Source of the DNA: Eubacteriales bacterium
GTDB taxonomy: Bacteria; Bacillota; Clostridia; Lachnospirales; Lachnospiraceae
Assembly (NCBI GenBank): GCA_030537135.1
Contig: JAUNOP010000002.1
Location: forward strand, 10,507 to 74,506
Reading direction: 5' to 3'
Length of the DNA: 64,000 nt
Positions 9,027-25,137 of this stretch are shown here, in pieces. Below the pieces are notes generated by a model. That model was not told the DNA's origin. It was given only the letters and a program-made list of their open reading frames with translations, and did not search any database. The translations under genes were made by a program, and so were the position numbers. Position 1 is the stretch's first letter. Every line of letters starts with the position of its first letter.

Positions 9027-9038
9027 GAGGAAAAGCAG

Positions 9039-9497: not shown

Positions 9498-9507
9498 GTG
9501 ATTACAT

Positions 9508-11202
9508 ATGTTACTTCAGCTTCATGTGAAGAATCTTGCACTGATTGAGGAAATCGAGGTGGAATTTCATCCGGGACTCAATATCCTTACAGGAGAGACC
9601 GGCGCCGGAAAATCCATACTTCTGGGATCTATTCAGATGATACTGGGAGGAAAAATGACCAGAGACATGGTCAGGGAGAACGCATCCTATGCTCTTGTGG
9701 AGCTTTTGTTTCAGGTGGAAAATAAGAGAGCAGAGGAGGCTCTTGGCGCTCTGGGAATCGAAATGGAGGAAGGACAGGTGCTTCTCAGCAGAAAGCTCAC
9801 AGGCGGAAGAAGCGTGTGCAGAATAAACGGAGAGACATGCACCATTGGTCAGATGAAGGAGGCGGCAGGCCATCTTCTCGATATTCACGGACAGCATGAG
9901 CATCAGTCTCTTCTGTATCCGGACAGGCAGCTTGCCATCCTGGACGCCTATGGAAAAGAGAGAATAGACGCACTCAAGGCAAGGGTATGCAAAAGCTATG
10001 AAGCCTATCGCCTGTGCAGCGAGCGCCTAAAGGCCATGGACATGGACGAGGAACACCGAAGAAGAGAAATTGCGTTTCTGGAATTTGAGATTGGAGAAAT
10101 CGAGGAGGCTGCTCTTCGTGACGGAGAGGATGGGGAACTGGAGGCTCTGTACCGGAAGCTGAGCAATGGAAAGCAGATTACAGAGTCCCTGGCAGAGGTA
10201 AAGCGCTTTACAGGCTATGACTCCATGCAGGGAGCTGGAGAGGTTGTGGGGCAGGCGCTTCGGGAGCTTTCCAGGGTTGTACCGTATGACAGAGATATGA
10301 GAGAGCTGGAGGAAGCGCTCACAGATATTGACAGCCTGCTCAATGACTTTAATCGTGAGCTTTCGGATTATATGGATACTCTTGTCTTTGATGAAGAGAC
10401 CTTTTATGAGACAGAAAAGAGGCTGGATCTTATCAACAGCCTGAAAGCAAAGTACGGACAGAGCATTTCCGAAATTCTTAGTTATCAGACCAGACAGCAG
10501 AAAAAACTGGAAAATCTTGTAAAATTTGAAGAAAATCTGGAAAAGGCAAAGCAGGAGCTTTTAAAAGCAGAGAGGATTCTGGAAAAAAACTCGCATGAAT
10601 TGTCAGAGGTTCGGAAAGAATACAGTAGACACCTGGAACAAAAGATGATAGAAGGTCTTCGGGATTTGAATTTTCTGGATGTGCGTTTTCAGGTGGAATT
10701 CCAGAGAAAAAAGCGCTACACAGAAAATGGCTTTGACGAGCTTCAATATATGATTTCCACGAATCCAGGAGAACCCTTAAGACCTTTAAAAGCAGTGGCG
10801 TCAGGAGGAGAGCTTTCTCGAATCATGTTGGCTGTCAAGGCGATTCTGGCAGATAAGGACGAAATTGAAACGCTGATATTTGATGAAATTGACACAGGAA
10901 TCAGCGGACGCACTGCCCAGAAGGTGTCTGAGAAAATGGCGCTTATCGGGGCGCACCGTCAGGTGCTGTGTATCACCCATCTTCCCCAGATTGCGGCAAT
11001 GGCAGACACGCATTTTGAAATCAGGAAATCAGTGGAAGACAAGGAAACAATGACCAGAATTTATCCTCTGGATAAGGAAGCGTCTATTCGAGAGCTTGGA
11101 AGGCTTCTCGGAGGCGCGCAGATTACCAGGGCAGTGGAAGAAAACGCCAGAGAAATGAAGGAATTGGCACTCCAGTATAAAAATGCAAGACTGAAATCCT
11201 GA
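9508..11202 (+). CDS. recN: DNA repair protein RecN
   Basis: 564 aa. Walker A GETGAGKS, long coiled coil, signature ASGGELSRIMLA and Walker B LIFDEIDTGISG. Confidence 0.95.
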   Translation: MLLQLHVKNLALIEEIEVEFHPGLNILTGETGAGKSILLGSIQMILGGKMTRDMVRENASYALVELLFQVENKRAEEALGALGIEMEEGQVLLSRKLTGGRSVCRINGETCTIGQMKEAAGHLLDIHGQHEHQSLLYPDRQLAILDAYGKERIDALKARVCKSYEAYRLCSERLKAMDMDEEHRRREIAFLEFEIGEIEEAALRDGEDGELEALYRKLSNGKQITESLAEVKRFTGYDSMQGAGEVVGQALRELSRVVPYDRDMRELEEALTDIDSLLNDFNRELSDYMDTLVFDEETFYETEKRLDLINSLKAKYGQSISEILSYQTRQQKKLENLVKFEENLEKAKQELLKAERILEKNSHELSEVRKEYSRHLEQKMIEGLRDLNFLDVRFQVEFQRKKRYTENGFDELQYMISTNPGEPLRPLKAVASGGELSRIMLAVKAILADKDEIETLIFDEIDTGISGRTAQKVSEKMALIGAHRQVLCITHLPQIAAMADTHFEIRKSVEDKETMTRIYPLDKEASIRELGRLLGGAQITRAVEENAREMKELALQYKNARLKS

Positions 11203-11297
11203 GATTTCTGCATACTAAGAGAGAATGAACCGGAAGGACATTCTCTCTTTTTAACGTATAAAGGAAGTTTTACTAGATTTTACAAGGAGGTTCTGTC

Positions 11298-12497
11298 ATG
11301 GCCAAGAGAAAATACCGTCTGCTGGTACTCCTTCTTCTCGCAGCAGACATGATGATAATTTGCTATCTTGGATACCGTTATCTGGATCGTAAGGTACCAG
11401 ATAGGATTCTGGTGTCAGAGGAGGAGGGAAACACTCTGGTAGAGGCCCTGGAAAATCCCTGGATTCATGTGGAAGAGGCAATAGAGGTCTCAGGAAACGG
11501 AGGCTATCATCTGGAAACAACGATTCTGGGAGTGATTCCTTTTAAGGAGATTCAGGTGGAGAGCCAGCACAGGCCCACTGTGCTGGTGAGCGGAGAGCCT
11601 GTGGGAATTTATATGGAGACAGAGGGCGTGCTGATTGTGGATACAGGGGAAATTCTGTCAAGGGAAGGAATTTCCCAATATCCGGCGGAAAATATTGTTC
11701 AGCCAGGGGACTATATCGTGGCATTTAATGAACAAAATGTCAGCACAAAAAAGCAGCTTGTGGAGGATATCAGCGAGTGCAGCGGAGAGCCTGTATGTCT
11801 GACTGTAAAGCGTCAGGGAGAGATCTTTCCGATTTCTGTAAGTCCAGTGCTGGATCAGAATGGAGAGTATAAGCTGGGTATCTGGGTAAGGGACAATACA
11901 CAGGGAATCGGAACGCTCACCTATGTGGACAGTCAGGGACATTACGGAGCACTTGGCCATGGAATCAGCGATGTAGACACGGGCGAGCTTCTGGAAATAC
12001 GGACTGGAAATCTGTATGAGGCACAGATCCTGAGTATCCGAAAGGGGAGCAAGGGAAATCCGGGCGAGCTTGCAGGGCTGATTCGCTATGAGGAGGCAAA
12101 GAGAATCGGAAGCATCCTCTCAAACACTGGAAATGGAATTTATGGAACGATTCGTCAGGCAGAGGAGGCTGGGCTTCATCTGCAGAGCTATCCTGTGGGG
12201 TATAAGCAGGAAATGGAGCTTGGAGAGGCCACGATTTTATGCAGAGCAGAGGATGAGGTAAAGGAATACCGAGCCGAGATTACACAGATTGACATGAATC
12301 ATGAGGATACCAATAAAAGCTTTGTGATTCAGGTGACAGACCCGGAGCTTCTTGCCGCCACAGGAGGTATTGTCCAGGGAATGAGCGGCAGCCCGATTTT
12401 GCAGAATGGAAGGATTGTGGGGGCGGTGACGCATGTGTTTGTCAATGACCCGACGAGGGGGTATGGGATATTTATTGAAAATATGCTGGAGCATTGA
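11298..12497 (+). CDS. spoIVB: SpoIVB peptidase (S55) signalling protease
   Basis: 399 aa. N-terminal TM segment, PDZ-like middle, and protease core GIGTLTYVD...GALGHGI...QGMSGSPI. Strong RBS AAGGAGG. Confidence 0.9.
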   Translation: MAKRKYRLLVLLLLAADMMIICYLGYRYLDRKVPDRILVSEEEGNTLVEALENPWIHVEEAIEVSGNGGYHLETTILGVIPFKEIQVESQHRPTVLVSGEPVGIYMETEGVLIVDTGEILSREGISQYPAENIVQPGDYIVAFNEQNVSTKKQLVEDISECSGEPVCLTVKRQGEIFPISVSPVLDQNGEYKLGIWVRDNTQGIGTLTYVDSQGHYGALGHGISDVDTGELLEIRTGNLYEAQILSIRKGSKGNPGELAGLIRYEEAKRIGSILSNTGNGIYGTIRQAEEAGLHLQSYPVGYKQEMELGEATILCRAEDEVKEYRAEITQIDMNHEDTNKSFVIQVTDPELLAATGGIVQGMSGSPILQNGRIVGAVTHVFVNDPTRGYGIFIENMLEH

Positions 12498-12511
12498 ATC
12501 CGGGCAGGACA

Positions 12512-12542
12512 GGCCATCGGCTAAGCCGGTGGTCTTGATTTT
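12512..12542 (+). terminator. intrinsic terminator after spoIVB
   Basis: Hairpin GGCCATCGGC-taa-GCCGGTGGTC (one G-U pair) followed by TTGATTTT. Confidence 0.55.
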
Positions 12543-12652
12543 GCAGATTTAGACAGTGAAATTTTAGTATGTGACCTGAAAAAATATGCTATACTTAAAT
12601 TAGTATAAATTGGTTTTGAAATGTGAATTATTTTAGAGAAGGGGGATTTAGA

Positions 12653-13208
12653 ATGAGAGGTATTATAAATTCAATTCTAGTAATTGCAATGATAGTAATA
12701 ATAGGTGAAAATATTTCTGTTTACGCTGCTAACGACACATCTCTTTTACAAGAAAATTATTTATGAAAAGACGGCGGACGCAGACTGCGCTCTGGTTTCT
12801 ATAAACGATTACAGCCCTGAGAACGGATACCGGTTCAACCGCGAGGGCATCGGCTGGCACATCTGGGCCGGCGACATCAACAGCGATGCTGTCGATATCA
12901 TCCGCAGCAATGGAACGACGCTGACGGTTCAGAAACTGACCGGAGCTAAGATCAAGGATATGCTGGCGGAGGGCTATCATGTGGAGAACGGCGGAAGTGA
13001 TTACGGTCAGCATTCCTATTTGCTGGTAACTAGGGGCGGCATCGAACTTCAGGATGACCAGACCTATCGTCTGGCTATGAATACCCGGGATCTGCCAAAG
13101 GAGGTACGAGAGAGTCTTCCGATGCTTGAGATCACACCGCATGATGCGATCAAGGATTATATCCAGGAGCTTGGCACTTTTGCACAGGAGGATGTCGTGT
13201 GGGAATAA
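12653..13208 (+). pseudogene. frameshifted or fused remnant of a secreted protein (C-terminal part resembles a 5'-nucleotidase/metallophosphatase C-terminal domain)
   Basis: ATG at 12653 behind GAAGGGGG encodes a signal peptide (MRGIINSILVIAMIVIIGENISVYAANDTS...) that hits TGA at 12764-12766. The 167-aa ORF 12705-13208 continues in another frame (..TLTVQKLTGAKIKDMLAEG...YRLAMNTRDLP...DAIKDYIQ). There is an abrupt AT-rich to GC-rich switch near 12780. Confidence 0.4.
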
Positions 13209-13445
13209 ACGGGGGAGGGTGGAGCCTGCATGGCACTCCCACCCTCTGGAGCAGGCAAATTCTTCGCGCAGGAAGCACTTGCGGCAGGCGCGTTATTTTC
13301 CTGAACAGCTGCGGCATTACTACATAGAAGTGGGACAGTATATGGAACGGAACCTATAAAGGCATTGATGATCGGCTTATGTGGGAAGAAGAAATCTGAG
13401 AGGATCCTATCCACCTGTATGCACTGAATTCAAAATAGGAAGGCA

Positions 13446-13607
13446 TCAAAAATCATGTTGATATGGTTTTGGGTGCCTTTTTTGCGTTGTACAGGATAAA
13501 ATCCATCTATACAGCGTGTCCACATTGACGTCCTGCTCTTTTGCCGCTTTGCGAAATCCGCTCTCCCTTCTAAGCTTTACTGCCTGAAGTCTGAAAAAAT
13601 ACTGCGT
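13446..13607 (-). mobile_element. remnant of an IS3-family transposase OrfA helix-turn-helix
   Basis: The minus-strand frame, open between stops, reads YFFRLQAVKLRRESGFRKAAKEQDVNVDTLYRWILS... This matches the F-K-x-x-A-V-x-L...(HTH)...TLYRW pattern of IS3/IS911 OrfA. It has no start codon and is truncated at both ends. Confidence 0.4.
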
Positions 13608-13651
13608 TTATGCGGCTTAATGGGTCCTATTTAATTACAGCTGTCTACAGC

Positions 13652-13671
13652 TGTCGAAGACCCGTGTCGAA
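13652..13671 (+). promoter_or_regulatory. two perfect Spo0A-box heptamers (TGTCGAA) in direct repeat
   Basis: TGTCGAA occurs at 13652-13658 and 13665-13671, 13 bp start to start. They lie inside ACAGCTGTCtACAGCTGTCGAAgacccgTGTCGAAttttttt. Confidence 0.4.
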
Positions 13672-13823
13672 TTTTTTTATAAAATTCACAAAAAAGGATT
13701 TGTATTTTTAATTTTCCGTGATAAAATGAGATAAAATGATAAAGGCATCAGGAAAAGGCATAATTAAGAAAAACTTGGAATATAGAAATAAAGAAAACTG
13801 AAGGGGTAATTATAAGAAGATGT

Positions 13824-14162
13824 GTGAAGACTTTCCTGGCGTTTCTGGCTGTTAGTGTGTATGCGGATGAAGTGGAGAAATCCTAAAAGCCTGAGATTGC
13901 AGCAGACTATCATATGATTGTGGAATCGCCGGAGAGCGGAATTAACATATACTTCGGAACCAACGGATGCAGAGAGCAACGAGCTTCTCATAGTTAATGG
14001 AAGCAGTCTTACCCTTACTTCATCTGTAACATCAACAGCGAAGAAACTTCTGCCAGTCAGGTGACCAGCTCTTCCTTTATTTTGAAGGATCCATTTTTCT
14101 GGATTATTCTCGTAGTTATTATTACAGTGATCGTATTTCTGATTTATAGAAAATCCCCTTAA
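13824..14162 (+). pseudogene. decayed small secreted/membrane-anchored protein gene
   Basis: GTG at 13824 gives the signal peptide MKTFLAFLAVSVYA followed by an early stop. Later frames carry fragments (..NELLIVNGSSLTLTSSVTSTAKK..) and a C-terminal TM anchor (KDPFFWIILVVIITVIVFLIYRKSP-stop at 14160-14162). At least two frame breaks. Confidence 0.3.
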
Positions 14163-14220
14163 ACTGATATTTCCTCCATCATACCCAAAAGAAGATTGTT
14201 TGGCAAGGAAAAACGCCGGA

Positions 14221-14284
14221 AATACCTAAACGACCAAAATAATACCTAAACAACATCCCACAGCAGAAAAAAGTATGTTATAAT
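14221..14284 (+). promoter_or_regulatory. extended -10 promoter (TGTTATAAT) preceded by two phased AATACCTAAAC repeats; likely promoter of the envelope operon
   Basis: AATACCTAAAC lies at 14221-14231 and 14241-14251, exactly 20 bp apart. TGTTATAAT lies at 14276-14284. There is no good -35, consistent with activator dependence. Confidence 0.45.
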
Positions 14285-14416
14285 TTGATTATAAAATGGA
14301 AAGTGGGGTTGACGTTTATAATCAGCACAAGACAGAGCAAGCATTTGCCTTGCCTGCCTTGTGTTGGTTTTTGGGGCATACAAAAATATACGGAAAAAGG
14401 GTGCGCCTGGAAAGGG

Positions 14417-15214
14417 ATGAAAGATATTATGAAAGAAAAACGGATTATCTATTATTCCAGAACATACCGGAGAATCAAGGTCAACAAGATAAAATACATA
14501 CTCTATATCTGCCTTTTGATTTTGCCGGCGCTTCTGTTTTTGTGGTTTCATCTGGATGATCTGACCAGATGGATGTGCGAAGTGTCTGTACAGGTTTTAA
14601 AAAAATACTGTCCGGAGGTAAGAGCCGGGATTCGGACCGAGCGCTATGCACTGTTTGGAAATTTAAGCTACTTATCTGCCAGGACGGTGTATCCGGGCTT
14701 TCGTACAAGCGTACTGAATGCCGTGGCGTCATTTTTTGCGATTGCTGTGATTGTGAATCTTCCCTGGAAGGGACGGCCGGTTGCGATTTATCTGCTTTTA
14801 AATACGGGAATCCATCTCATAAACAGTTTGTGGTTTGTATTTGGCGAGCGGTACTTTCCCTATTCCCTTACGACCTATTCAGAGCTGTACATGCTGCAGG
14901 AAATCGGTATCTGGATTGTGTTTCTGGTGATGACCGGGCTGGTGACAGGAATGATTGGCGATCGGGGTTTTATATATAAATTCCTGGCAGTGGCGGCGGT
15001 TATGGCATACTCCATTCTTTTTGGGGTTTTGCGCTATATGGTATTTATGTATTTTATGTATCGTTATTCGATTATTTATATGGCGTTGTGCTACTTCACC
15101 TTTGGCCCCATGTTTGATTTTTTGTATCTTGTAATGATTTATGCGATATTTGTAAACCGGATGATTAAGATCTATGATTCTGGAAAAGGCAGGGAGGCAT
15201 GGAGATGGTCGTAA
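14417..15214 (+). CDS. multi-pass integral membrane protein of unknown function (first gene of the envelope operon)
   Basis: About 6 hydrophobic segments are visible (YILYICLLILPALLFLWF, ASFFAIAVIVNL, VAIYLLLNTGIHLI, IGIWIVFLVMTGLV, FLAVAAVMAYSILFGVL, FDFLYLVMIYAIF). The track ORF start at 14285 overlaps the promoter -10, so the start is probably the ATG at 14417 or 14429. The 3' end overlaps the GT2 gene. Confidence 0.6.
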   Translation: MKDIMKEKRIIYYSRTYRRIKVNKIKYILYICLLILPALLFLWFHLDDLTRWMCEVSVQVLKKYCPEVRAGIRTERYALFGNLSYLSARTVYPGFRTSVLNAVASFFAIAVIVNLPWKGRPVAIYLLLNTGIHLINSLWFVFGERYFPYSLTTYSELYMLQEIGIWIVFLVMTGLVTGMIGDRGFIYKFLAVAAVMAYSILFGVLRYMVFMYFMYRYSIIYMALCYFTFGPMFDFLYLVMIYAIFVNRMIKIYDSGKGREAWRWS

Positions 15215-16470
15215 AAATAATGAAGGGGTATATGATTTTTGTCATCATTGTAATGCTGCTGTATACGGCCCGACATTTTTTCTTTACCATTGTCCGGCTG
15301 GTTGGAAGACAGCGGCTTTACTATAATGACGTTGTGACAAGCAGAATGAAAAGTATTTCTGTACTGATTCCCATGCACAATGAGGAACAGGTATTAAATA
15401 ATGTGCTGAATTCTTTGCTGGAGTGTGATTATGACAGAGACAGGCTGGAAATTATTCCCATCAATGATAATTCCACAGACCAGACAAAGGCCATGCTGGA
15501 TGAATATCACCGGAAGTATGAATTTATCCGTCCTCTGCACAGGGACTGCCCGGACAGGGGCAAGCCCGTGGGATTAAATGACGCCATGCAGAGGGCAAGA
15601 GGGGAGATTATCATTGTTTTTGACGCGGATTATCGTCCTGCCAAAAACATGCTCAAGCAGATTGCCCTGGCCTTTGAGGATCCCCAGGTGGGAGCGGTTA
15701 TGGGAAGGGTAATTCCTTATAATACCAACAAAAATATACTTACCCGGCTGATTAATCTGGAGCGTTCCGGAGGGTATCAGATAGACCAGCAGGCACGGTA
15801 TAATCTGCGGGCAATCCCTCAGTACGGGGGAACCGTGGGCGGCTTTCGCAAGGATTTCCTTCTGGAAAGCGGCGGCTTTAACCCCAAGGTGCTGGCAGAG
15901 GATACGGAGCTTACCTATCGGCTTTTTACCAATGGCTGGAAGGTGGTTTATGCCAACTCCGCAGAGTGCTATGAGGAGTCGCCGGAGAGCTGGAATGTGC
16001 GAGGAAGGCAGATACGAAGATGGTCCAGGGGGCATAATCAGGTGCTGTTTCGATATCTGATCCCCACTATACTTACGCCCCATCTGACGTTGTTTCAGAA
16101 AATTGACGGCCTGTTTCTTTTGTTCATTTATTCTGTTCCGCTGATTTTGCTTCTTGGCTGGGCGAATTCCCTAGGGTTGTTTTTCCTGGGAGAAATGAAT
16201 ATCTTCAAAGGCTGGTGGGTGATTTTGTTCCTTGGAGTTTACAATTCTCTGGGAAATTTCGCACCATTTTTTGAGATAGGTACCTCGCTGGTAGTTGACG
16301 GGCTTTTGGGAGAGGCCATGCTTCTGCCGCTTATAATGTTTAACTTTTTCTTTTATATGTGGAACATTTCTCTTGGCTTTTTGGACGCAGTGGTGGATAT
16401 CATCACAGGACGCGGTGTGAAGTGGGATAAAACCGTCCGTTTTGCCAAGAAGAAAGGAGCGCCGCAATGA
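15205..16470 (+). CDS. processive family-2 glycosyltransferase (PgaC/IcaA/cellulose-synthase-like polymer synthase) with N- and C-terminal TM segments
   Basis: It carries the D, DxD, TED and QxxRW set: PINDNSTD, IIVFDADY, QYGGTVGGFRK, LAEDTELTYR, RGRQIRRWSRGH. One TM helix precedes and about 4 follow the catalytic domain. The ATG at 15205 is 7 nt after AGGGAGG (an alternative ATG is at 15199). Confidence 0.85.
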   Translation: MVVKIMKGYMIFVIIVMLLYTARHFFFTIVRLVGRQRLYYNDVVTSRMKSISVLIPMHNEEQVLNNVLNSLLECDYDRDRLEIIPINDNSTDQTKAMLDEYHRKYEFIRPLHRDCPDRGKPVGLNDAMQRARGEIIIVFDADYRPAKNMLKQIALAFEDPQVGAVMGRVIPYNTNKNILTRLINLERSGGYQIDQQARYNLRAIPQYGGTVGGFRKDFLLESGGFNPKVLAEDTELTYRLFTNGWKVVYANSAECYEESPESWNVRGRQIRRWSRGHNQVLFRYLIPTILTPHLTLFQKIDGLFLLFIYSVPLILLLGWANSLGLFFLGEMNIFKGWWVILFLGVYNSLGNFAPFFEIGTSLVVDGLLGEAMLLPLIMFNFFFYMWNISLGFLDAVVDIITGRGVKWDKTVRFAKKKGAPQ

Positions 16471-18188
16471 GTTCATTGGTTTTGTTATTTGTCTTCTTGC
16501 TCCTGGCGCCTCTTCTCATTGCAACGCTGTACTTTAAGACAAGAAAGGGAAATATTCTGGGAATCCGCCAGGATTATGTAAGAGATGTGCGTTACTTTGG
16601 CCACAGCTTTGCCGGGATGGTGGAAAAAGCGCTGCCAAATATGAAAAACGGAGAGCTTCAGTTATCCAGAAAGGAACAGGTGCTGGAGATTGGAAGCGAG
16701 CAGATATTTGAGGAGCCGGAGATTGAAAAGCTGGTCATTGTGAGAAACAGGGAGTTTTGTCCAAAAGGGGAAAAGCTTCATTTTCAGAAGGAGATTTACT
16801 GCGAAAAAGATGCGCACCTTATTGGAGAGGAGCTTTATCTTCGAGCTGCGTTCAGTAGGAAGCGGATACTTCTTGGCAATGGAACAGAGGTGGTGCGCTG
16901 GGTGGATGCAGACGGTGCGGTGGCAGTTTATGATCACTGCGACCTGGGAAGGAGTGTTTCCAGCGGTGAGCAGCTGGTGATTGGATTTGACAATATCTTT
17001 CATAGCCTTTTTGCCCCACAGATAAGGCTGGGTGTGCGGCCGGAGGATCCGGACGAATTTATGAAGGGACGTGATCCGAAAATTTTCCGCCTTCCAGTCA
17101 TAACGGATTCAGAGTTCAATGCCCATTATATCAGTGATGATATGATTTCCGAGGAGGGGCTTGTACCCTATACCATCATCACCAGGTTGGGTCTTAAGAT
17201 TGTAGACGGAATCATTCTCCAGGGAGATATCCACAGTGACCACTTTGTCCGTGTGATGGAAGGCGGGACGGTTCTTGGAAATATTTTCGCGGAGAAGGAT
17301 ATTCTTCTGGAGAAAAATACGACGGTTCTTGGAAATGTATTTACGCAGGGGGATATCTTTTTTGAGGAAGGCGCCTGCGTAGGGCAGCCTGGAAAAATCA
17401 GTTCTGTGATTGCCAGAGGAAATATTCAGTTTACCGGTAAGAATTATGTGTATGGTTATATCTCGTCAGAAGCAGGAGGCAGGATACTTCCGCAGATGGA
17501 TATTCAGATGGATGATGATGGAAATGAAATCCCGCCAATTTACTGCTTTCCGGGAAAGATGAAATATCAGGAGGAAATTCGCTTCCGGGATTTGATAGAA
17601 TATGGGAATGTGGACGCCCAGGGCTTCCGGCTGGATATGAATATCAAGCGGGCAGAGATTCCTTTCGGCGCCAGGGAAATACCGGAAAGCCAGTTCTTTG
17701 GCTGCGGCGGCATGGAGGAAATCTCGCTTCCTGTTACGCTTACCTCTGTAGAGGCTTATGCCTTTGCAGATTGTTTAAAAATGCGGTGTAAGGAGGATTT
17801 GGGAAGAATACCCCTGCGCTTTGTGGGAATTTCTGCCTTTGAAAATTGCGAAAATCTGGAATGCTCTGGTTTGCCAGATACATTGGAAAGCATTGAGGGC
17901 GCCGCCTTTGCCGGCTGCAGTTCTTTGAAAACGCTTGTCTTTTCGGATGGGGCTGCCCTGAAAAAAGTGGGGGATCACGCATTCCGAAGCTGTACGGGGC
18001 TTACAAAGGTTTCCCTGCCGGATAGGACGGAATATGTGGGCGTCAGCGCCTTTTTGGGTTGTACCTCATTAAAAGAAATCTCTCTGCCGGAAACAGTGAA
18101 GAAGGAGCCGGGGGTAAAGGAGCTTGCCAAGAATTGCCCTGGAATCCATATTACCTTCCGTGAAGTTCCGGCTGAAGAGGAAAGCTAG
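16467..18188 (+). CDS. membrane-anchored protein with bactofilin-like beta-helix repeats and C-terminal BspA-type leucine-rich repeats
   Basis: N-terminal TM (SLVLLFVFLLLAPLLIATLYF). Middle repeats GDIHSDHFVRVMEGGTVLGNIFAEKDILLEKNTTVLGNVFTQGDIFFEEGACVG. C-terminal LRRs (AFADC..., ISAFENCENL, IEGAAFAGCSSLKTL, VGDHAFRSCTGLTKVSLP, VSAFLGCTSLKEISLP). ATGA overlap with the GT2 stop. Confidence 0.7.
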   Translation: MSSLVLLFVFLLLAPLLIATLYFKTRKGNILGIRQDYVRDVRYFGHSFAGMVEKALPNMKNGELQLSRKEQVLEIGSEQIFEEPEIEKLVIVRNREFCPKGEKLHFQKEIYCEKDAHLIGEELYLRAAFSRKRILLGNGTEVVRWVDADGAVAVYDHCDLGRSVSSGEQLVIGFDNIFHSLFAPQIRLGVRPEDPDEFMKGRDPKIFRLPVITDSEFNAHYISDDMISEEGLVPYTIITRLGLKIVDGIILQGDIHSDHFVRVMEGGTVLGNIFAEKDILLEKNTTVLGNVFTQGDIFFEEGACVGQPGKISSVIARGNIQFTGKNYVYGYISSEAGGRILPQMDIQMDDDGNEIPPIYCFPGKMKYQEEIRFRDLIEYGNVDAQGFRLDMNIKRAEIPFGAREIPESQFFGCGGMEEISLPVTLTSVEAYAFADCLKMRCKEDLGRIPLRFVGISAFENCENLECSGLPDTLESIEGAAFAGCSSLKTLVFSDGAALKKVGDHAFRSCTGLTKVSLPDRTEYVGVSAFLGCTSLKEISLPETVKKEPGVKELAKNCPGIHITFREVPAEEES

Positions 18189-18201
18189 AAGGAGGGAAGA
18201 A

Positions 18202-19323
18202 ATGAAGGAAAAAAAATTAGGCTTGGCGCTTCTTTCTTTGGCAGTGATGGCGGTATTGGCAATCGGCTGTGTGTGCCTGCAGAACTTTATGCATGAGCTG
18301 ACAAATGCAAAAGAAGCAGAGGTGTTCTGGCCGGAAATGCGGGATCAGTATAATCAGTATGGTTTGCCGGATCATACGGAACTTTCCAAGGAAATCATTG
18401 TGCAAAACGATACAGAGGTAATTTATACAGATCGTATTTTTACACTTGGACAGCTAACCAAGAGCGATGCGCAGTATGCGATAAAGGCTGCTGACGCACT
18501 TCTGAAAATCGAGCCGCAGATCGAAAAGCTGTATATTATGCCCATCCCGGAAAGGGCGGTATTTGAAGAAGGCTATGAAACAGAACGGGAAGCATATCAG
18601 ACGCTTATCGAAAATCTTCAAAATTCGGTACACGAAGGGGAAGTAATTCTGGATCCACTGGAGGAGCTTCTTGCTCACCAGGAAGAATACATTTACTTTC
18701 GGACACATAACTCCTGGACTATGCGGGGGGCCTTTTACGGAATGCAGGTTATGCGAAAAGCTCTTGGCCTTGAAGAAGAAGATCTGAATGGGTACAGAAC
18801 CTATATGTTTGGAGATTTTACTGGTAGTTTGTTGACGCATGCGACTGCAGAATATAAGGATACAGAGTATGAGGAAGCCATAGATGAAATGGAAGGGGAT
18901 CCATTTTATATCTATATTAAAGGACATAATCCGAACAGAGAGGAACTGACATTCCGAAATGCACAGGGCGAGCTGAAAACGATGAAGAGAGGGACTATTC
19001 TGATGAACAGTAATGGGCCGTCTTCTGTAGTTGGAGGGAGCTATTATCACAGTGTTGTATCAGGAAACGGAAAAGGAAGTATTATTTTAATTGCAGATAG
19101 CCTGGGAAAGCTGCTGGTTTCTTACCTTTCCCAATTGTATGAGACGGTATATGTGGTAAAGGCGGATGAAGATGCTTTGTTTGCAGAAGAGGTAAATAAG
19201 GTGGTATCGGAATACGGGGTGCATGAGGTCTTATGGGCACAAAGAGCTTCTGAGATAGGAGATGCTTCTTATATGAAGGCGTGGAATACTCTTCTTAGAA
19301 AGGAAGGTATGGCAAATGACTGA
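18202..19323 (+). CDS. DHHW/AlgJ-like family protein with the signature motif degenerated (RTHNSWT)
   Basis: N-terminal TM anchor (LGLALLSLAVMAVLAIGCV). Size (about 373 aa) and the block YIYFRTHNSWTMRGAFYG align with the YYRTDHHWT(x)GAY block of DHHW proteins as I recall it. ATG at 18202 follows GAAGGAGGG. Confidence 0.5.
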   Translation: MKEKKLGLALLSLAVMAVLAIGCVCLQNFMHELTNAKEAEVFWPEMRDQYNQYGLPDHTELSKEIIVQNDTEVIYTDRIFTLGQLTKSDAQYAIKAADALLKIEPQIEKLYIMPIPERAVFEEGYETEREAYQTLIENLQNSVHEGEVILDPLEELLAHQEEYIYFRTHNSWTMRGAFYGMQVMRKALGLEEEDLNGYRTYMFGDFTGSLLTHATAEYKDTEYEEAIDEMEGDPFYIYIKGHNPNREELTFRNAQGELKTMKRGTILMNSNGPSSVVGGSYYHSVVSGNGKGSIILIADSLGKLLVSYLSQLYETVYVVKADEDALFAEEVNKVVSEYGVHEVLWAQRASEIGDASYMKAWNTLLRKEGMAND

Positions 19324-19933
19324 ATGGATTCTTCGATGGATATCCCTTTTTGAGACAAAAACCAGGATTGCCGGGAAGTTTACCCTGGAGGAAACAACAT
19401 GGGAGCTGGTATTTTTGGTATTTGGAATCCTCCTTGTTTTTGCCGGTATTAAGCTTTTTCGCCTCTTAAGTTCTTTTTTGATGTTTTCGGCAACTGCCAT
19501 TGTACTGTGTACCTTTATGAATGGAAGAGCGAATTGGGGGGCGATTGTGACTGCCTTTACCATTATTGGCTGTCTGTTTGCCTATATGGTCTTTAACTGG
19601 AAGGTGGCGGATGCCATTGTGATAAGCTCCCTCACAGCGGCCGCCATAGCCTGGAAGGTGTATCCAGTATGGTGGGCGGCGCTGCTTGTTGGGGCTGCAG
19701 TGGGTATTTTTGTTGGGAACTTTCCGCTTATTGGGATCACCGCCTCCACAGCAGTAGCAGGTGTGACGATTCTTATGGAAGGAGCGTTAAGGGATGGCAG
19801 TCCGTTTATTCCTGTTTTGGCAGTATTCGCCGGATTTGGAGTTCAGTTTTTCTTGATTGGAAGGAAACAGAAGCTTTTTGCAAGGACTATGCCGGCAAAG
19901 CTGAAGCATAGGCTGGAACGCAGAAGGAGGTGA
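19316..19933 (+). CDS. polytopic membrane protein of unknown function
   Basis: 205 aa with 5-6 hydrophobic helices and a basic tail (KLKHRLERRRR). 8-nt overlap with the preceding gene. Confidence 0.6.
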   Translation: MTEWILRWISLFETKTRIAGKFTLEETTWELVFLVFGILLVFAGIKLFRLLSSFLMFSATAIVLCTFMNGRANWGAIVTAFTIIGCLFAYMVFNWKVADAIVISSLTAAAIAWKVYPVWWAALLVGAAVGIFVGNFPLIGITASTAVAGVTILMEGALRDGSPFIPVLAVFAGFGVQFFLIGRKQKLFARTMPAKLKHRLERRRR

Positions 19934-19937
19934 GGCT

Positions 19938-20618
19938 ATGCGGACGGTTTTTCGAAAAGAAATCAAATATTTGATTCCAAGAGGTACGGCTCTTTCTCTG
20001 GAAAGAAGGCTGAGAGAAGTCATGGAGAGGGATACGCATGGAGACGATGGAAATTATTTCATCCGCTCTCAGTACTACGATTCTGTGTATGACCGGGATC
20101 TGGCGGATAACCTGGACGGCTTGTATGAAAAGAGAAAAATTCGCCTGCGGATTTACGATTTGGATACGTCCATGGTGAAACTGGAATATAAGTGCAAAAA
20201 CGGTCTGGACGGAGTGAAATATTCCATGGATATCAGCAGGGAGGAGGCTTTGCAGATGGAGCAGGGGGATATCTCTTTCCTCCTGGATTATGACAATGAG
20301 CTGGCCATGCATCTCTGGGCCAGAATGACGGAAGGTTATTATCGGCCGAAGATCATTGTGGATTATCACAGACTGGCCTTTGCGTATCCGGCGGGAGACG
20401 TACGGATTACCTTTGACCGGGATATCCGGGGGTCTGTTTGCCCCTACGGGCTTTTTGAGGAAATCAGCACCGATGGGATAGGCGGACCGGAGGAGGTTTT
20501 GATGGAGGTCAAATACACAGATTTTTTGCCGGATACCCTGCAGTGGATTTTAAAGGATGCAGATTCACTGGCTGCAAGCAATAGTAAATATTCCAGAACA
20601 AGAATGCTCTGCCGGTAA
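19938..20618 (+). CDS. VTC-domain (polyphosphate polymerase / triphosphate-tunnel) protein, soluble
   Basis: 226 aa. FRKEIKYLI..., YFIRSQYYDS, KRKIRLRIY, VKLEYKCK and LMEVKY form the alternating basic/acidic beta-strand pattern of CYTH/VTC tunnels. Called by recollection. Confidence 0.7.
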   Translation: MRTVFRKEIKYLIPRGTALSLERRLREVMERDTHGDDGNYFIRSQYYDSVYDRDLADNLDGLYEKRKIRLRIYDLDTSMVKLEYKCKNGLDGVKYSMDISREEALQMEQGDISFLLDYDNELAMHLWARMTEGYYRPKIIVDYHRLAFAYPAGDVRITFDRDIRGSVCPYGLFEEISTDGIGGPEEVLMEVKYTDFLPDTLQWILKDADSLAASNSKYSRTRMLCR

Positions 20619-20708
20619 CAAAGGAATCGACAGGAAGGAGAAAAGTTTGGAAGTAAACTTCCAAATTTACCATTATTGACGCAGCATGTGCGTCATGAAG
20701 GAGGAAAA

Positions 20709-21389
20709 ATGAGAGAATTTATTGTAGAAAATTTAACGAACACAGAAGCGCTTAGTGTGACAGTGATTGTCATGAACAATGTACTCGCTTTGGTTGCTGC
20801 TTTTTTTATTATGTTTACGTACAAAATATCCTTTACAGGAAGCGCTTACAGCCGGAAATTTAATGTTTCCCTTGGCTCTATTACCATTATTACGACTATG
20901 ATTATGAGTGTTATCAGCAACAATGTAGCATTGTCTCTTGGTATGGTGGGCGCTCTTTCCATCATCCGTTTCCGTACGGCTGTGAAGGATGTACGGGATG
21001 CTGTCTATATTTTCTGGGCCATTGCGGCAGGAATTGGCTGCGGTGTGTCTCAGTATGCTCTGATAGCCATTGGCTCTGCGTTTTTGCTTCTGTTTCTTAT
21101 TCTTACCAGGAGAGGCTTTACTTCTGAGAAGAAGCTGATGATTGTTCAGGGCGATGTTGCGGCGCTGCATAAGATTGAGGCGGCAGTAGAAAATTTCTTT
21201 GACAGAAAGGTTCAGGTGACCATGCGCAATGTGACAAAAACAAGCTGTGAGCTGGTGTATTCCATTGGAGAAGGGCTTCTGTCCAAGGCTGCCAAGGAAA
21301 AACAGATGGATATTTCCGAAAAGCTGATTAAAATTGATGGTGTAAAGAGAGTAAATATCGTAGACCAGAAAGATGAACTGTCACAATAA
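20709..21389 (+). CDS. DUF4956-family membrane protein (4 TM + C-terminal soluble domain)
   Basis: ATG at 20709 follows GAAGGAGG. It has TM helices and the conserved-looking GALSIIRFRTAVKDVRDAVYIFWAIAAGIGCG, then a soluble tail of about 90 aa. It sits beside VTC and CotH genes, as DUF4956 genes usually do. Confidence 0.6.
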   Translation: MREFIVENLTNTEALSVTVIVMNNVLALVAAFFIMFTYKISFTGSAYSRKFNVSLGSITIITTMIMSVISNNVALSLGMVGALSIIRFRTAVKDVRDAVYIFWAIAAGIGCGVSQYALIAIGSAFLLLFLILTRRGFTSEKKLMIVQGDVAALHKIEAAVENFFDRKVQVTMRNVTKTSCELVYSIGEGLLSKAAKEKQMDISEKLIKIDGVKRVNIVDQKDELSQ

Positions 21390-21416
21390 AACAGGAACCA
21401 TGCAAGGGGTGAGGCT

Positions 21417-22853
21417 ATGAAACGTGCAAAGAAGCTGGCGGCGTGTGTGATGCTGCTGCTGGTTCTGCTTGCGGCAGTGGTGGCGGGAAATTATGTGGTG
21501 CGCTTGGAAGAAACCGTGGAAGCAGAAAAGCGGGTCTCTATTTCCGAGAAGGAGATGGAAAAATGGAAGGCGCCTTCGGAGAAATTTTTGGAGTATTACG
21601 GGCTTGGTGTATTTCGCACCAATCTTCCGGTGGTCTATATGAACACAAATGGACAGCAGGTTTTAAAGGAAAACAAAATCTGGGGAAATATTGCCCTTCT
21701 GGATGCAAATGGCGAGGAACAGTCGATTATATCTGTTCCAAACGCGTTGTATCGGGCAACGATCAAATACCGGGGGGCATCCTCGTATAGCGGTTTTGAT
21801 AAGAAACAGTATCGGATAAAATTTTATAAGAATGATTCTGACGGGGCAAAGAACGTATCACTGGCCGGTATGGGAGCGAACAGCGAATGGGTGTTAAACG
21901 GGCCGTATCTGGACAAGACGCTGATGCGGAATAAACTGGTTTATGACCTGGCAAGGGAATTGAATGGCTGGGCGCCGGATTCCAGATTCGTGGAGCTTTT
22001 TGTGGATGGAGAGTATCAGGGCGTTTATCTTGCTGTGGAGCCGGTCACAAACGGGGAAAGCAGGCTGCGGCTTTCGGAATTTGGCCTGTTATCAGGAGAG
22101 ACGGCATATATTGTGGGACGTGACAGGCTGGAGACAGGAACCTCGGAGATTGAAACTAGCGGAAAGACTAAAGGGTATACGAACAATACTTTGTATTTGA
22201 GGTATCCTTCAGAAAGTAACGTGACGGAAAGACAGTGGGAATACATTGTCAAGGATATTTCGGATTTTGAGGAAGTCCTTTATGGGGAGGATTTTACAGA
22301 TTCCAGGATGGGATATTTGGCTTATATTGATGTGGATAACTGGGTAGACTATTTTATTATCAATGAATTTGCCATGAACTATGATGCAGGAAATTTGTCA
22401 ACCTATGTCTATAAGGAGTTGGCTGGGAAGCTGCAGCTTGCCGTGTGGGATTTCAATAATAGTTTTGATAATTATCATTGGCTCGGAGTGGATACTGCAG
22501 GTTTTTATACCGTTGAGAATTCCTGGCTGGACAGAATATGTGAAGACAGAGATTTTATTGACCGGGTTATAGAACGATACCGTGTGTTGCGGGAAGGCAT
22601 TTTGTCAGAGGAGCATATACAGGAACTGCTGGATTCCTATGAAGCGGAGCTGGGAGACGCGATAGAGCGAAACTTTAAGATTTGGGAATATTCCTTTGAG
22701 GAAAACCTCTTGGTAGGAAAAAAAGCAGACGGAGGCGAAAGAGATATCACAAGCTATGAGCAGGCAATGGAGCAGTTAACCTCCACCATCCATAAACGTT
22801 TGTTATGGCTGGATGAACATATCGAAGATCTTTACCAATATTGTGTAGAGTGA
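21417..22853 (+). CDS. CotH-family atypical protein kinase with N-terminal signal anchor
   Basis: 478 aa. Signal anchor LAACVMLLLVLLAAVVAG. CotH blocks YRIKFYK, NSEWVLNGPYLDKTLMRNKLVYDLAREL, FVELFVDGEYQGVYLAVEPV, DYFIINEFAMNYDAGNLSTY and AVWDFNNSFD. Confidence 0.8.
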   Translation: MKRAKKLAACVMLLLVLLAAVVAGNYVVRLEETVEAEKRVSISEKEMEKWKAPSEKFLEYYGLGVFRTNLPVVYMNTNGQQVLKENKIWGNIALLDANGEEQSIISVPNALYRATIKYRGASSYSGFDKKQYRIKFYKNDSDGAKNVSLAGMGANSEWVLNGPYLDKTLMRNKLVYDLARELNGWAPDSRFVELFVDGEYQGVYLAVEPVTNGESRLRLSEFGLLSGETAYIVGRDRLETGTSEIETSGKTKGYTNNTLYLRYPSESNVTERQWEYIVKDISDFEEVLYGEDFTDSRMGYLAYIDVDNWVDYFIINEFAMNYDAGNLSTYVYKELAGKLQLAVWDFNNSFDNYHWLGVDTAGFYTVENSWLDRICEDRDFIDRVIERYRVLREGILSEEHIQELLDSYEAELGDAIERNFKIWEYSFEENLLVGKKADGGERDITSYEQAMEQLTSTIHKRLLWLDEHIEDLYQYCVE

Positions 22854-22871
22854 AAGGACTGGAAGAAGAAA

Positions 22872-23972
22872 ATGAAAAAAGTAATGGCTGTGTTTGGGAC
22901 AAGGCCGGAGGCTATTAAGATGTGTCCTCTTGTTCTGGAGCTGAAAAAAAGCGATCAGTTAGAGACTCTTGTGTGCGTCAGCGGACAGCATAGGGAGATG
23001 CTTCAGCAGGTGCTGGATATTTTCGGTGTGGTGCCGGATTATGATTTGGCAATTATGAAGCAGGGGCAGGATTTGACGGATGTGACTACCGCAAGCCTTG
23101 TTGGAATGAGAGAGGTGCTGAAAAAGGAAGAGCCGGACGTGGTGTTGGTTCATGGTGATACCTCGACGGCCTTTGCGGCTTCCCTTGCGGCCTTTTATCA
23201 GCAGATTCCTGTGGGGCATGTGGAGGCGGGGCTTCGTACCTATAATCTTTGGTCCCCGTATCCGGAAGAGTTTAACCGTCAGGGTATCGGTCTGACTGCG
23301 ACGTATCATTTTGCCCCCACGGAGACGGCCAGGAAAGCGCTTTTAAAAGAGGGAAAAAATCCGGAGCGAATCTATGTGACCGGAAATACAGGAATCGATG
23401 CTCTGTTTCATACCATCCGGGAGGATTTCCATCATCCGGAGATTGACTGGGCGAAGGGAAGCCGGTTAATCGTTCTTACAGCTCACAGAAGAGAGAATTT
23501 AGGCGATCCTATGCGGGAAATGTTTCGGGCAATTCGCCGAATCATTGATGAATTCCAGGATGTGAAGGTTCTTTATCCTATTCATATGAATCCGAAGGTG
23601 CGGGCGATTGCATCGGAGGTCTTTGAGGACTGCGAGCGGATTCGGATCATTGAGCCGCTGGATGTGGTGTCGTTCCATAATCTGATGAAAGCCAGCTATC
23701 TCATCATGTCGGACAGCGGCGGAATTCAAGAGGAAGCGCCTGCATTAGGAAAGCCGGTTCTGGTGATGCGGGATACCACCGAGAGGCCGGAGGGTGTGGA
23801 AGCGGGTACGCTGAAACTGACCGGCACCGGAGAGGAAGCAATCTATCAGGAATGCAAAAGGCTCTTGACAGACCCGGAGGTTTACCGTCAGATGAGCGAG
23901 GCCACAAATCCGTATGGAGACGGAAAGGCCAGCCAGAGAATCCGAAAAATTTTGGAGGAGACAGATGCGTAA
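22872..23972 (+). CDS. wecB: UDP-N-acetylglucosamine 2-epimerase (non-hydrolysing)
   Basis: 366 aa. MAVFGTRPEAIKMCPL..., HVEAGLRT, TAHRREN and SDSGGIQEEAP are typical WecB/MnaA blocks. Confidence 0.9.
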   Translation: MKKVMAVFGTRPEAIKMCPLVLELKKSDQLETLVCVSGQHREMLQQVLDIFGVVPDYDLAIMKQGQDLTDVTTASLVGMREVLKKEEPDVVLVHGDTSTAFAASLAAFYQQIPVGHVEAGLRTYNLWSPYPEEFNRQGIGLTATYHFAPTETARKALLKEGKNPERIYVTGNTGIDALFHTIREDFHHPEIDWAKGSRLIVLTAHRRENLGDPMREMFRAIRRIIDEFQDVKVLYPIHMNPKVRAIASEVFEDCERIRIIEPLDVVSFHNLMKASYLIMSDSGGIQEEAPALGKPVLVMRDTTERPEGVEAGTLKLTGTGEEAIYQECKRLLTDPEVYRQMSEATNPYGDGKASQRIRKILEETDA

Positions 23973-25137
23973 GCGCTTTTTGGGACGCAGAAGTTTTACT
24001 TGGATAGGAGTGTTGGCGCTGCTTGCGGTATTGGGATACCTGGGCGCGGATATGGTATACCGAAAAATGAATGAGAGAATATATCAGCCAAGGCTTGCCT
24101 GGGCAGAGGCTCTGATGGAGCGGGAGAAGGAATGGATTTTTGCTAATCAGGGAGAGGATGGGGAAATTTACATGAACGGAGAAGAGGCCGGGAATGTAAA
24201 TCCCTATTTTTCCTGTCAGGCGGCGCTGGGACTTTTACAAGGAACAAAAGAACGGCCGGCTGCGGAAAGGGAGCTTTCTGCAGCCGGCCGTTATTTGAAT
24301 TGGCATACAAAGGTGCTGCTGGATTCTGATGGAGCAGTGGGGATTTATGAGAAGAAGGGGGATTCCTTTGTGCGGACAGACAAAGGGGATTCCGTGGATG
24401 CGTATCTGGGGACGTATCTGGAGCTGCTTGGAAAGTATCTGCTGACAGCTGGAAGCGTGGAGGGGCTGGACTCCTGGGAGGAGGGCATTTTGGCGGCTGT
24501 TGGTGCGCTGGAGTCGCTTTTGGAGGATGGTCTGACCAGGGTTTCGGCGGAGAATGATACGAAGTATTTGATGGATAATCTGGAGGTTTGGAGGGGGCTT
24601 GCGGCTTTGGAGGAGGGGCTGGATGCAATATCGACTACCACCGGGGAGGCTTTGGCAGTGTGCGGGCGCATAGAGAAGCTGCGGAGGATTCTGGAAGAGC
24701 GGATAACAGAGGCTTTTTGGGTGGAAAGCGTGGGAAGATGGCGCGTTATGGAGGGGGATGAGCGTTTTTCTGAGGGGTCATTTTATTTGGATGAGTTTTA
24801 TCCGGACGGAGTGGCACAGATTTATCCGCTGATTTATGGATTCCCGGTGGAGGACTGGAAGGCGCAGAAGGAGCTTTATCGTGATTTTACGGAGGCATTT
24901 CGGTGGGAAGTGATTGAAGAAAACACATCGGAGTTTGTCTGGACGATGGTGGGAATGGGAGCTGCGAAAGCAGGGGATGTAGAGAGGCTGGAAGACTTTT
25001 TGGAAAACTATGAGAAGGCATTTGCCTCTAAGAGAGACTACCCGCTATACACCGGCGAGGCCGGATGGGTTTGCAGAGAGTGCGAGTGGTATTGTAGATA
25101 TTGTTTGAAGAAGATAGAAGGGCATTTGTTATTTTGA
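23965..25137 (+). CDS. membrane-anchored all-helical protein of unknown function (possible six-hairpin glycosidase-like fold)
   Basis: The ATG at 23965 overlaps the wecB stop (ATGCGTAA). N-terminal anchor FTWIGVLALLAVLGYLG. The rest is helix-rich with aromatic/acidic repeats (DAYLGTYLELLGKY, YLMDNLEVWRGLAAL, FYPDGVAQIYPLIYG). The fold guess is weak. Confidence 0.55.
   Translation: MRKRFLGRRSFTWIGVLALLAVLGYLGADMVYRKMNERIYQPRLAWAEALMEREKEWIFANQGEDGEIYMNGEEAGNVNPYFSCQAALGLLQGTKERPAAERELSAAGRYLNWHTKVLLDSDGAVGIYEKKGDSFVRTDKGDSVDAYLGTYLELLGKYLLTAGSVEGLDSWEEGILAAVGALESLLEDGLTRVSAENDTKYLMDNLEVWRGLAALEEGLDAISTTTGEALAVCGRIEKLRRILEERITEAFWVESVGRWRVMEGDERFSEGSFYLDEFYPDGVAQIYPLIYGFPVEDWKAQKELYRDFTEAFRWEVIEENTSEFVWTMVGMGAAKAGDVERLEDFLENYEKAFASKRDYPLYTGEAGWVCRECEWYCRYCLKKIEGHLLF

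Follow-up and report, generated by a model that had tools for sequence, protein, structure and literature searches.

To our knowledge, only a handful of synthase-dependent exopolysaccharide (EPS) systems are known: cellulose, poly-beta-1,6-N-acetylglucosamine (PNAG), alginate, Pel, Pss and Nfr. Two of them, NfrB/NfrA of E. coli (with a WecB paralogue) and PssA-E of Listeria, are synthases of N-acetylmannosamine polymers; in both, a processive family 2 glycosyltransferase (GT2) is genetically coupled to a UDP-GlcNAc 2-epimerase and to cyclic di-GMP (c-di-GMP) signalling. In Gram-positive bacteria, cotH, a polyphosphate (polyP) polymerase gene, DUF4956 and DUF4832 are accessory genes contiguous with pel operons (Whitfield et al., PMC7112168). 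Deletion of the CotH-like and the DUF4956-like gene of Streptococcus intermedius changes Pel amount and aggregation, and the authors of that study stated that they had been unable to find the trio of VTC, DUF4956 and CotH outside Pel loci (PMC12345266; mBio 2025). Here we analyze a ten-gene locus in a 64,000-nucleotide stretch of DNA from a Eubacteriales bacterium of the family Lachnospiraceae (GCA_030537135.1, contig JAUNOP010000002.1, positions 10,507 to 74,506; hereafter the window), in which the trio stands behind a GT2 synthase. We read the region as a single operon through which this uncultured gut bacterium makes a cell-surface polysaccharide of the synthase-dependent kind. A portable module with phosphate-based chemistry, which we infer, would act on the polymer outside the membrane, and we put the probability of this reading at roughly 0.6.

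A preliminary description of the locus had placed ten consecutive open reading frames (ORFs) on one strand at 14417-25137, and an ORF check of the window returned the same coordinates, all on the + strand. The first junction was recomputed as -16 nt rather than the approximately -10 nt originally given; the other eight (-4, +13, -8, +4, +90, +27, +18 and -8 nt) were exact. Profile annotation with Pfam and NCBIfam recovered every domain that had been claimed; P1, P5 and P10 matched no family in either collection. The ten genes are:

P1, 14417..15214, + strand: polytopic membrane protein of a new family, GT2 partner (by conserved adjacency).
P2, 15199..16470, + strand: processive membrane GT2 synthase (Pfam GT2 families).
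P3, 16467..18188, + strand: transmembrane (TM) anchor, beta-rich domain, bactofilin-like beta-helix and C-terminal BspA-type leucine-rich repeats (LRR) (Pfam and AlphaFold2 [AF2] model).
P4, 18202..19323, + strand: signal-anchored extracytoplasmic DHHW/AlgX-like domain that has lost its catalytic motif (Pfam DHHW).
P5, 19316..19933, + strand: small polytopic membrane protein, partner of the VTC enzyme (by fusions to VTC).
P6, 19938..20618, + strand: cytoplasmic VTC-type triphosphate-tunnel, polyP-polymerase-like enzyme (Pfam VTC).
P7, 20709..21389, + strand: DUF4956 membrane protein with an MgtC-like TM region and a cytoplasmic C-terminal domain (Pfam).
P8, 21417..22853, + strand: signal-anchored, outward-facing CotH-family kinase (Pfam CotH).
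P9, 22872..23972, + strand: non-hydrolysing UDP-GlcNAc 2-epimerase of the WecB/MnaA type (TIGR00236).
P10, 23965..25137, + strand: signal-anchored helical protein, tentatively six-hairpin (alpha/alpha)6 glycosidase-like (weak profile matches).

We searched for related loci using the GT2 alignment as query and one genome per species. The scan yielded 80 loci with GT2 identities of 52-89%, and the window proteins were mapped onto the ORFs of each locus with iterated hidden Markov models. P1, P2 and P3 were found together, in that order, in essentially all 80 loci. Hosts among the Firmicutes include Lachnospiraceae (Dorea amylophila, Blautia glucerasea and Bariatricus massiliensis), Oscillospiraceae, Christensenellales and Bacilli; other hosts include Negativicutes, Nitrospirota, Deltaproteobacteria, Acidobacteria, Aquificae and Dictyoglomus. 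Judged by this distribution, P1-P2-P3 is an ancient, pan-bacterial core and no Firmicutes speciality. The WecB 2-epimerase and P10 are its usual companions.

Accessory genes were counted only in loci with at least 7.5 kb of downstream sequence, that is, 38 from monoderm Firmicutes and 22 from diderms (5 of them Negativicutes). In monoderm Firmicutes, the set that follows the core consists of the pseudo-DHHW protein P4, P5, VTC, DUF4956 and CotH, and the trio itself occurs in 35/38 monoderm versus 0/22 diderm loci. A deacetylase-like protein of ~620 aa, which we call X, has the opposite distribution (17/22 diderm versus 0/38 monoderm loci). Diderm loci, those of Negativicutes included, carry X, a short P10 homologue and outer-membrane barrels. 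A metagenome-assembled genome (MAG) of a deltaproteobacterium, for example, has a YaiO-domain barrel directly after P1-P2-P3 (L071, 12520-13332), and in Phascolarctobacterium (L056) the genes P1-GT2-P3-X-P10 stand before one for a coiled-coil protein of 599 aa that matches no Pfam family and that we take to be an outer-membrane barrel. The accessory half of the locus tracks envelope type and not phylogeny. The recurrence of core and accessories across loci also identifies the cluster as a conserved unit. The preliminary description had proposed that the operon joins a synthase block to a VTC/DUF4956/CotH block, and had named co-occurrence of gene neighbourhoods across Firmicutes as one check. 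Dozens of species have both blocks, arranged alike; the gene order is shared by 35/38 monoderm Firmicutes loci, which is not chance, and gene fusions link the blocks further. Two loci with the full Firmicutes-type cluster (L016 and L042) came from bins labelled Sphaerochaetaceae and Micrarchaeota and are probably mis-binned contigs.

The fusions involve P3 with P4 and P5 with VTC. P3-TM-P4 fusions occur in three loci (L032, 11254-14100; L042, 7924-10140; L043, 11251-13452) and in two further proteins (P0277 and P0279). The second TM segment, between the fused P3 and P4, implies that one domain lies inside the membrane and the other outside, and the fusion links P4 physically with the synthase complex. 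P4 itself had been called a degenerate DHHW-like protein, and this holds: it matches Pfam DHHW (PF14286) with 62 bits over profile positions 225-385 only, the C-terminal half, and D-H-H-W is replaced by R-T-x-x-x-W-T in 32/32 family members. With this motif replaced, P4 is a probable pseudo-enzyme whose acyl-transfer chemistry has probably been lost. It has a signal anchor, with an outward topology by the positive-inside rule, and we read it as a polymer-binding module. P5 has ~5 TM segments and a basic C-terminus and is present in 29/38 monoderm loci. In two species P5 and VTC form a single in-frame ORF (L014, 13957-15576; L015, 13753-15573) with a Pro/Ala-rich linker of ~70 aa, which indicates that the tunnel enzyme is tethered to the membrane, as in eukaryotic Vtc4.

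P2 was proposed to be a processive GT2, and its motifs bear this out: D142-x-D144, E234-D235 and Q271-I-R-R-W275 are invariant among orthologues, and TM segments flank the catalytic domain. The Pfam GT2 score is 103 bits. A membrane GT2 with D, DxD, ED and QxxRW is a general property of synthase-dependent EPS systems, and so are dedicated membrane partners, here P1 and P3 (adjacent in nearly all 80 loci), together with X and barrels in diderms. The further claim, that no characterised EPS system has this composition, was borne out for PNAG, cellulose, Pel and Nfr, with PgaC/IcaA and CelA models far below their cut-offs and no Pel or BcsB-type protein present. The best NCBIfam match of P2 is PgaC_IcaA (TIGR03937; residues 13-322), at 121.6 bits versus a cut-off of 422.3. 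The BcsA cellulose synthase models TIGR03030 and PRK11498 gave 61.8 and 49.7 bits versus cut-offs of 699 and 992, and no PilZ or BcsB domain was found in the ten proteins by Pfam. The locus resembles the PNAG systems (PgaABCD/IcaADBC) in its PgaC-like GT2 topology with a small membrane partner, and diderm relatives share their logic of a de-N-acetylase plus a porin. It differs in its partners P1 and P3, in its linkage to WecB and in having no gene for a carbohydrate esterase of family 4 (CE4) among the ten window proteins by Pfam and NCBIfam.

A relationship to NfrB was rejected. The BLASTP alignment of P2 with NfrB spans 134 residues at 19% identity and scores 24.6 bits, which is no meaningful similarity; NfrB also has a C-terminal c-di-GMP-binding domain that P2 does not. 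As for Listeria Pss, Pfam brought up neither a BcsB-like protein such as PssD nor a degenerate-GGDEF receptor such as PssE among P1-P10. More generally, Pfam detected no PilZ, MshEN or I-site receptor domain in P1-P10. A distant, full-length relative is E. coli K-12 YaiP, with 25% identity to P2 over 376 residues, the membrane part included. The yaiO-yaiX-yaiP-yaiS cluster in which it lies (L088, 380069-384616) also encodes a deacetylase, the YaiO barrel and a beta-helix protein of the hexapeptide type. This cluster, cryptic and disrupted by IS2 in K-12, differs in having no P1 homologue, and its YaiX is an acyltransferase-type left-handed helix that is not bactofilin-like.

In the literature searched, we found no characterisation of P1, P3 or the P2 GT2 family. 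P1 lies directly upstream of the GT2 in 77/80 loci. The family is stand-alone and compact (~260 aa), with 337 representative clusters among 1.84 billion proteins. Hydropathy gives 5 hydrophobic segments and the AF2 model 7 helices (pLDDT 84, pTM 0.78). Foldseek returned no structural relative in the PDB (E >= 0.1, TM < 0.25), and a sequence-profile search against PDB sequences returned no match. As modelled, P1 therefore represents a new fold. Its invariant residues, mostly aromatic or basic, include K8, R15, R18, D234 and a C-terminal W-x-W, and no obvious catalytic set is seen among the conserved residues. We infer that P1 partners the GT2, either in the channel or in assembly.

P3 combines an LRR_5 domain (100.6 bits, Pfam) with a bactofilin-like region. 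The window protein scores 17.8 bits versus a gathering threshold of 27.9 for Bactofilin (PF04519), which is matched by 43/46 family members at E <= 0.01 (best E = 1.9e-7); some members are named CcmA/bactofilin at JGI. In the AF2 model (pLDDT 91.6), the beta-rich domain is followed by a regular beta-helix at residues 236-340, with an 18-residue period, and then by the LRR. Because Foldseek matches came only from the LRR part and the sequence profile gave only weak beta-helix matches in the PDB, the bactofilin call rests on the Pfam counts. P3 has 0 Lys/Arg residues before its TM segment and 4 after it, so that by the positive-inside rule the C-terminal domain is predicted to be cytoplasmic. 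Diderm P3 is a short form that lacks the LRR.

We next consider the trio. P6 matches Pfam VTC (PF09359) over its full length with 96.6 bits versus a gathering threshold of 23. In an alignment of 43 sequences, the residues expected to line the tunnel, R6, E8, K10, K65, K67, R69, R71, E83, K85, K87, R145, R156, E190, K192, S216, K217 and Y218 are at least 95% conserved, forming the motifs ExK, RxR, ExKxK, ExK and SKY. This reading of the active site combines family conservation with motifs familiar from triphosphate-tunnel enzymes; a phmmer search of P6 against the PDB gave no match. P7 matches Pfam DUF4956 with 50.6 bits and MgtC weakly, and has the conserved motif SLGMVGALSIxRFRTxxKDxxD. P8 matches Pfam CotH (PF08757) with 213 bits versus a gathering threshold of 23.8 and aligns to B. 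cereus CotH (5JD9), with the catalytic-Asp and metal-binding-Asp motifs N-Y-D323...N and W-D345-F kept; conservation is 95% or higher at D323, D345, N348 and K129. The N-terminus is basic and runs into a TM segment, which fits a signal anchor, N-terminus in and C-terminus out. The eukaryotic VTC complex (Vtc4) is alike in having a VTC-family tunnel domain with charged tunnel residues, and the P5 fusion echoes its architecture of catalytic domain plus TM region. The likeness ends at the partners: Pfam found no SPX and no DUF202 domain in P1-P10, which sets the locus apart from VTC complexes as defined by these domains, and the membrane partners here are P5 and DUF4956.

The trio does occur outside Pel loci, contrary to the published statement (PMC12345266), and as a portable accessory it accompanies glycan machineries of at least four unrelated kinds. 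VTC and CotH active-site residues are kept also in trio copies from unrelated loci. The Gram-positive Pel loci are a close parallel: the same trio is contiguous with a synthase-dependent EPS operon in monoderms (pelDEADAFG, in Streptococcus, Clostridia and Bifidobacterium), a c-di-GMP enzyme gene is sometimes adjacent, and a glycoside-hydrolase-type gene lies at the operon end (PMC7112168, PMC12345266). Pel differs in its synthase, made up of PelF (a family 4 glycosyltransferase, GT4), PelG, PelD and PelE instead of GT2, P1 and P3; no domain matching PelF, PelG, PelD, PelE or a PelA-type deacetylase was found in the ten proteins by Pfam. P4 and P5 are specific to the present system, and WecB suggests N-acetylmannosamine (ManNAc), in contrast to the N-acetylgalactosamine-rich Pel polymer. 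The Clostridium perfringens locus NELoc-2 contains VTC, a 'tubulin' gene, CotH, a 685-aa protein, a HEAT protein and a GT2 'chitin synthase' (PMC2879425). The mis-named 'tubulin' gene sits where a Planococcus cluster has DUF4956. In this NELoc-2/Planococcus layout, VTC-DUF4956-CotH stand in the same order beside a membrane GT2, as in our locus. The layout differs in lacking P1, P3, P4, P5, P10 and WecB and in having HEAT-repeat and, in Planococcus, 689-aa proteins; the Planococcus GT2 is chitin-synthase-like (Pfam Chitin_synth_2) and scores 105 bits against the P2 profile. Beyond Pel and NELoc-2, we found no characterisation of the trio in the literature. The preliminary description had spoken of a fusion of a polysaccharide-synthase module with a VTC/CotH module; the combination seen here is new, and the association of the trio with EPS genes had already been published and is not a new principle.

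Two of the trio copies lie on plasmids. In Planococcus maritimus (L086, plasmid NZ_CP059541, 4470-12824), the trio is in the NELoc-2-like layout with HEAT and chitin-synthase-like GT2 genes. In Pseudobutyrivibrio xylanivorans (L087, pNP95, 8959-14763), it lies among GT4/GT2, acyltransferase and pyruvyl-transferase genes, and a phosphodiester-glycosidase gene is found ~8 kb upstream of it.

The last two genes of the operon point to the precursor and to a possible processing step. P9 matches TIGR00236 with 510 bits versus a cut-off of 210. WecB is linked to the core in 28/38 monoderm and 16/22 diderm loci, often directly upstream of P1. The preliminary description had taken the 2-epimerase as pointing to a ManNAc- or GlcNAc-containing polymer; the conserved linkage supports a ManNAc-type polymer, and the polymer probably contains ManNAc. 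P10 has a basic N-terminus followed by a TM segment, as in a signal anchor. Its family profile gives weak matches only (E 0.03-0.05), all of them to (alpha/alpha)6 enzymes, and individual members show scattered matches to LanC_like, rhamnosidase-6H and MGH1. S143, Y147, D204, N205 and E207 are invariant, and D142 and D145 are present in at least 90% of members. We tentatively assign P10 as a trimming hydrolase.

A c-di-GMP gene had been noted directly after the operon:

P11, 25215..28043, + strand: dCache-TM-GGDEF (RxxD I-site)-degenerate GGDEF-EAL protein (Pfam and motifs).

P11 indeed follows P10 after 77 nt without a terminator-like site, and it is possibly co-transcribed with the operon; the link is a loose one, as GGDEF/EAL genes are adjacent in only 7/38 monoderm loci. 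One GGDEF domain of P11 is intact and includes an RxxD I-site, and its EAL motif is the variant ECL. In a near-identical metagenomic contig (L002, 4561-7373), P11 is split into two genes.

Signals for expression were read around and within the operon. A Shine-Dalgarno-like purine run precedes all ten starts. The start of P1 is ambiguous, being either 14417 or 14429 (the NCBI model, 261 aa), and at 100% identity P1 matches a hypothetical protein that NCBI lists for a 'Eubacteriales bacterium' MAG. Visual reading of the upstream region gave one further feature:

Putative extended -10 promoter element, TGTTATAAT, 14276..14284, + strand, ~130 nt 5' of P1.

This element, putatively sigma-A-type, is the sole promoter-like feature seen upstream; it is absent from the consensus-scan list because its -35 is weak. 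The leader yielded no riboswitch (a c-di-GMP type would be expected), with no Rfam match at the gathering threshold or at E <= 5, and it is not conserved among relatives. The ~1.2 kb 5' of the operon (13210-14416) contains no ORF of 80 aa or more, only short TM-like ORF remnants, and a terminator-like hairpin lies near 13437-13485. Within the cluster, counts of internal terminators and promoters are not above those in shuffled sequence. Inside the coding region of P10 lies an inverted repeat whose 19-bp arms pair perfectly around a loop of 4 nt (AACGGCCGGCTGCGGAAAG-GGAG-CTTTCTGCAGCCGGCCGTT, 24251-24292); it is far longer than the other terminator-like matches and has no T-run after it. Elsewhere in the window, a 6S RNA gene (56531-56707) and a T-box leader (60492-60713) pass the Rfam gathering threshold and are unrelated to the operon.

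We propose the following mechanism. P9 would supply UDP-ManNAc, and P2, with P1 completing the channel, would polymerise and translocate an N-acetylhexosamine polymer containing ManNAc. P3 may scaffold or regulate the synthase from the cytoplasm, possibly with c-di-GMP input from P11. Outside the membrane, P4 would receive the chain as a non-catalytic AlgX-like module, and P10 would trim the polymer. The P5-tethered VTC enzyme and DUF4956 would deliver phosphate or polyP at or across the membrane, and with this, or with ATP, the outward-facing CotH would phosphorylate either the polymer or a partner at the surface. Such phosphorylation would hold the polymer in place or give it charge where the envelope lacks an outer membrane. 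The phosphate-based step of monoderms would hold the place of deacetylase and outer-membrane export in diderms.

Several points weigh against this mechanism. B. subtilis CotH is a protein kinase. We found no glycan substrate in the literature for any CotH kinase, and no polyP product for a bacterial VTC-domain protein. Deletion of the VTC-like gene of S. intermedius gave no aggregation phenotype (PMC12345266). Across the loci, WecB linkage is common and not universal; the channel role of P1 is pure deduction, with no structural relative to draw on; an LRR_5 domain is unusually placed in the cytoplasm; and the glycosidase-like fold of P10 rests on weak matches.

A more specific version of the mechanism, which we regard as speculative and rather doubtful, is that P5-VTC-DUF4956-CotH forms a trans-membrane phosphoryl-delivery machine of monoderm bacteria. 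PolyP made by the membrane-tethered VTC-type enzyme would be threaded outward through P5/DUF4956 and would serve as CotH's donor on the nascent EPS outside the membrane, where ATP is unavailable, leaving the polymer phosphorylated or polyphosphorylated. If true, bacteria would have here their first VTC-like polyP translocase, and CotH would be the first kinase of its family that acts on a glycan and is driven by polyP. The presence of the trio beside glycan machineries of at least four unrelated kinds would then be accounted for as well.

The same genes could instead serve regulation, an alternative that is not our favoured one and that we nevertheless take seriously. Here CotH would phosphorylate proteins, either synthase components or proteins of the surface, while VTC and DUF4956 would adjust local phosphate or polyP, so that output is tuned post-translationally. 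Characterised CotH enzymes are protein kinases, and the 5JD9 family aligns with P8. Regulation via protein phosphorylation is what the authors of the Pel survey propose (PMC7112168); deletions of the CotH-like and DUF4956-like genes shift Pel amount in opposite directions without abolishing it, and DUF4956 resembles MgtC, a regulator of phosphate metabolism, by a weak Pfam match (PMC12345266). However, CotH looks signal-anchored and outward-facing, whereas the catalytic and regulatory parts of the synthase (the P2 GT domain and P3) are cytoplasmic. Moreover, the company of four unrelated glycan machineries fits a common chemistry at the level of the product better than recognition of one specific protein.

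Could the locus be a variant of something already familiar? A PNAG-type (Pga/Ica-like) locus with extra genes would account for PgaC_IcaA being the best NCBIfam match of P2 and for the deacetylase-like gene and outer-membrane barrels of diderm relatives, which pgaABCD has too. Yet that match falls at 121.6 bits, far from the curated 422.3; no PgaD/IcaD-like or IcaB-like protein is present, P1 and P3 have no Pga/Ica counterpart, and a UDP-GlcNAc 2-epimerase, which PNAG does not need, is linked in most loci. We consider this explanation improbable. Still more improbable is a sporulation-specific locus for a spore-surface glycan, with CotH acting as in the Bacillus spore coat. CotH is indeed a spore-coat kinase family, the hosts are mostly Clostridia, and a SpoIVB gene lies 2 kb upstream. 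That gene is nevertheless separated from the operon by the terminator-like hairpin and 1.2 kb, the sole promoter-like element is a sigma-A-type extended -10, and CotH carries a signal anchor; the core occurs in non-sporulating diderm phyla, and the trio in non-sporulating streptococci and bifidobacteria (PMC7112168, PMC12345266). Finally, the +90-nt gap before DUF4956 and the gaps of +13 to +27 nt could host internal promoters, as would suit two unrelated operons placed side by side by chance. The synteny counts effectively refute this idea: the same gene order persists in 35/38 monoderm loci down to ~59% GT2 identity, P3-P4 and P5-VTC fusions exist, and internal terminator-like sites are no commoner than in shuffled sequence.

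What is new here is the core (P1, the P2 family and P3) and its combination with the trio; the trio as an EPS accessory was known before. The locus defines a further synthase-dependent system with a pan-bacterial core, as judged by homology and gene order, whose two obligatory partners, P1 and P3, have no counterpart in the known ones. It is common in human-gut Lachnospiraceae (Dorea, Blautia and Bariatricus), with protein clusters of thousands of members, and given this abundance the polymer likely matters for gut colonisation, aggregation, and phage or immune recognition. The split of accessories between monoderms and diderms amounts to a natural experiment: it sets the handling of a translocated polymer in envelopes that have an outer membrane beside that in envelopes that lack one. 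Strict coupling of the core to the trio, together with the P5-VTC fusion, offers the clearest genetic handle so far on the role of bacterial VTC-like enzymes and secreted CotH kinases, and the fusion makes experiments on them tractable.

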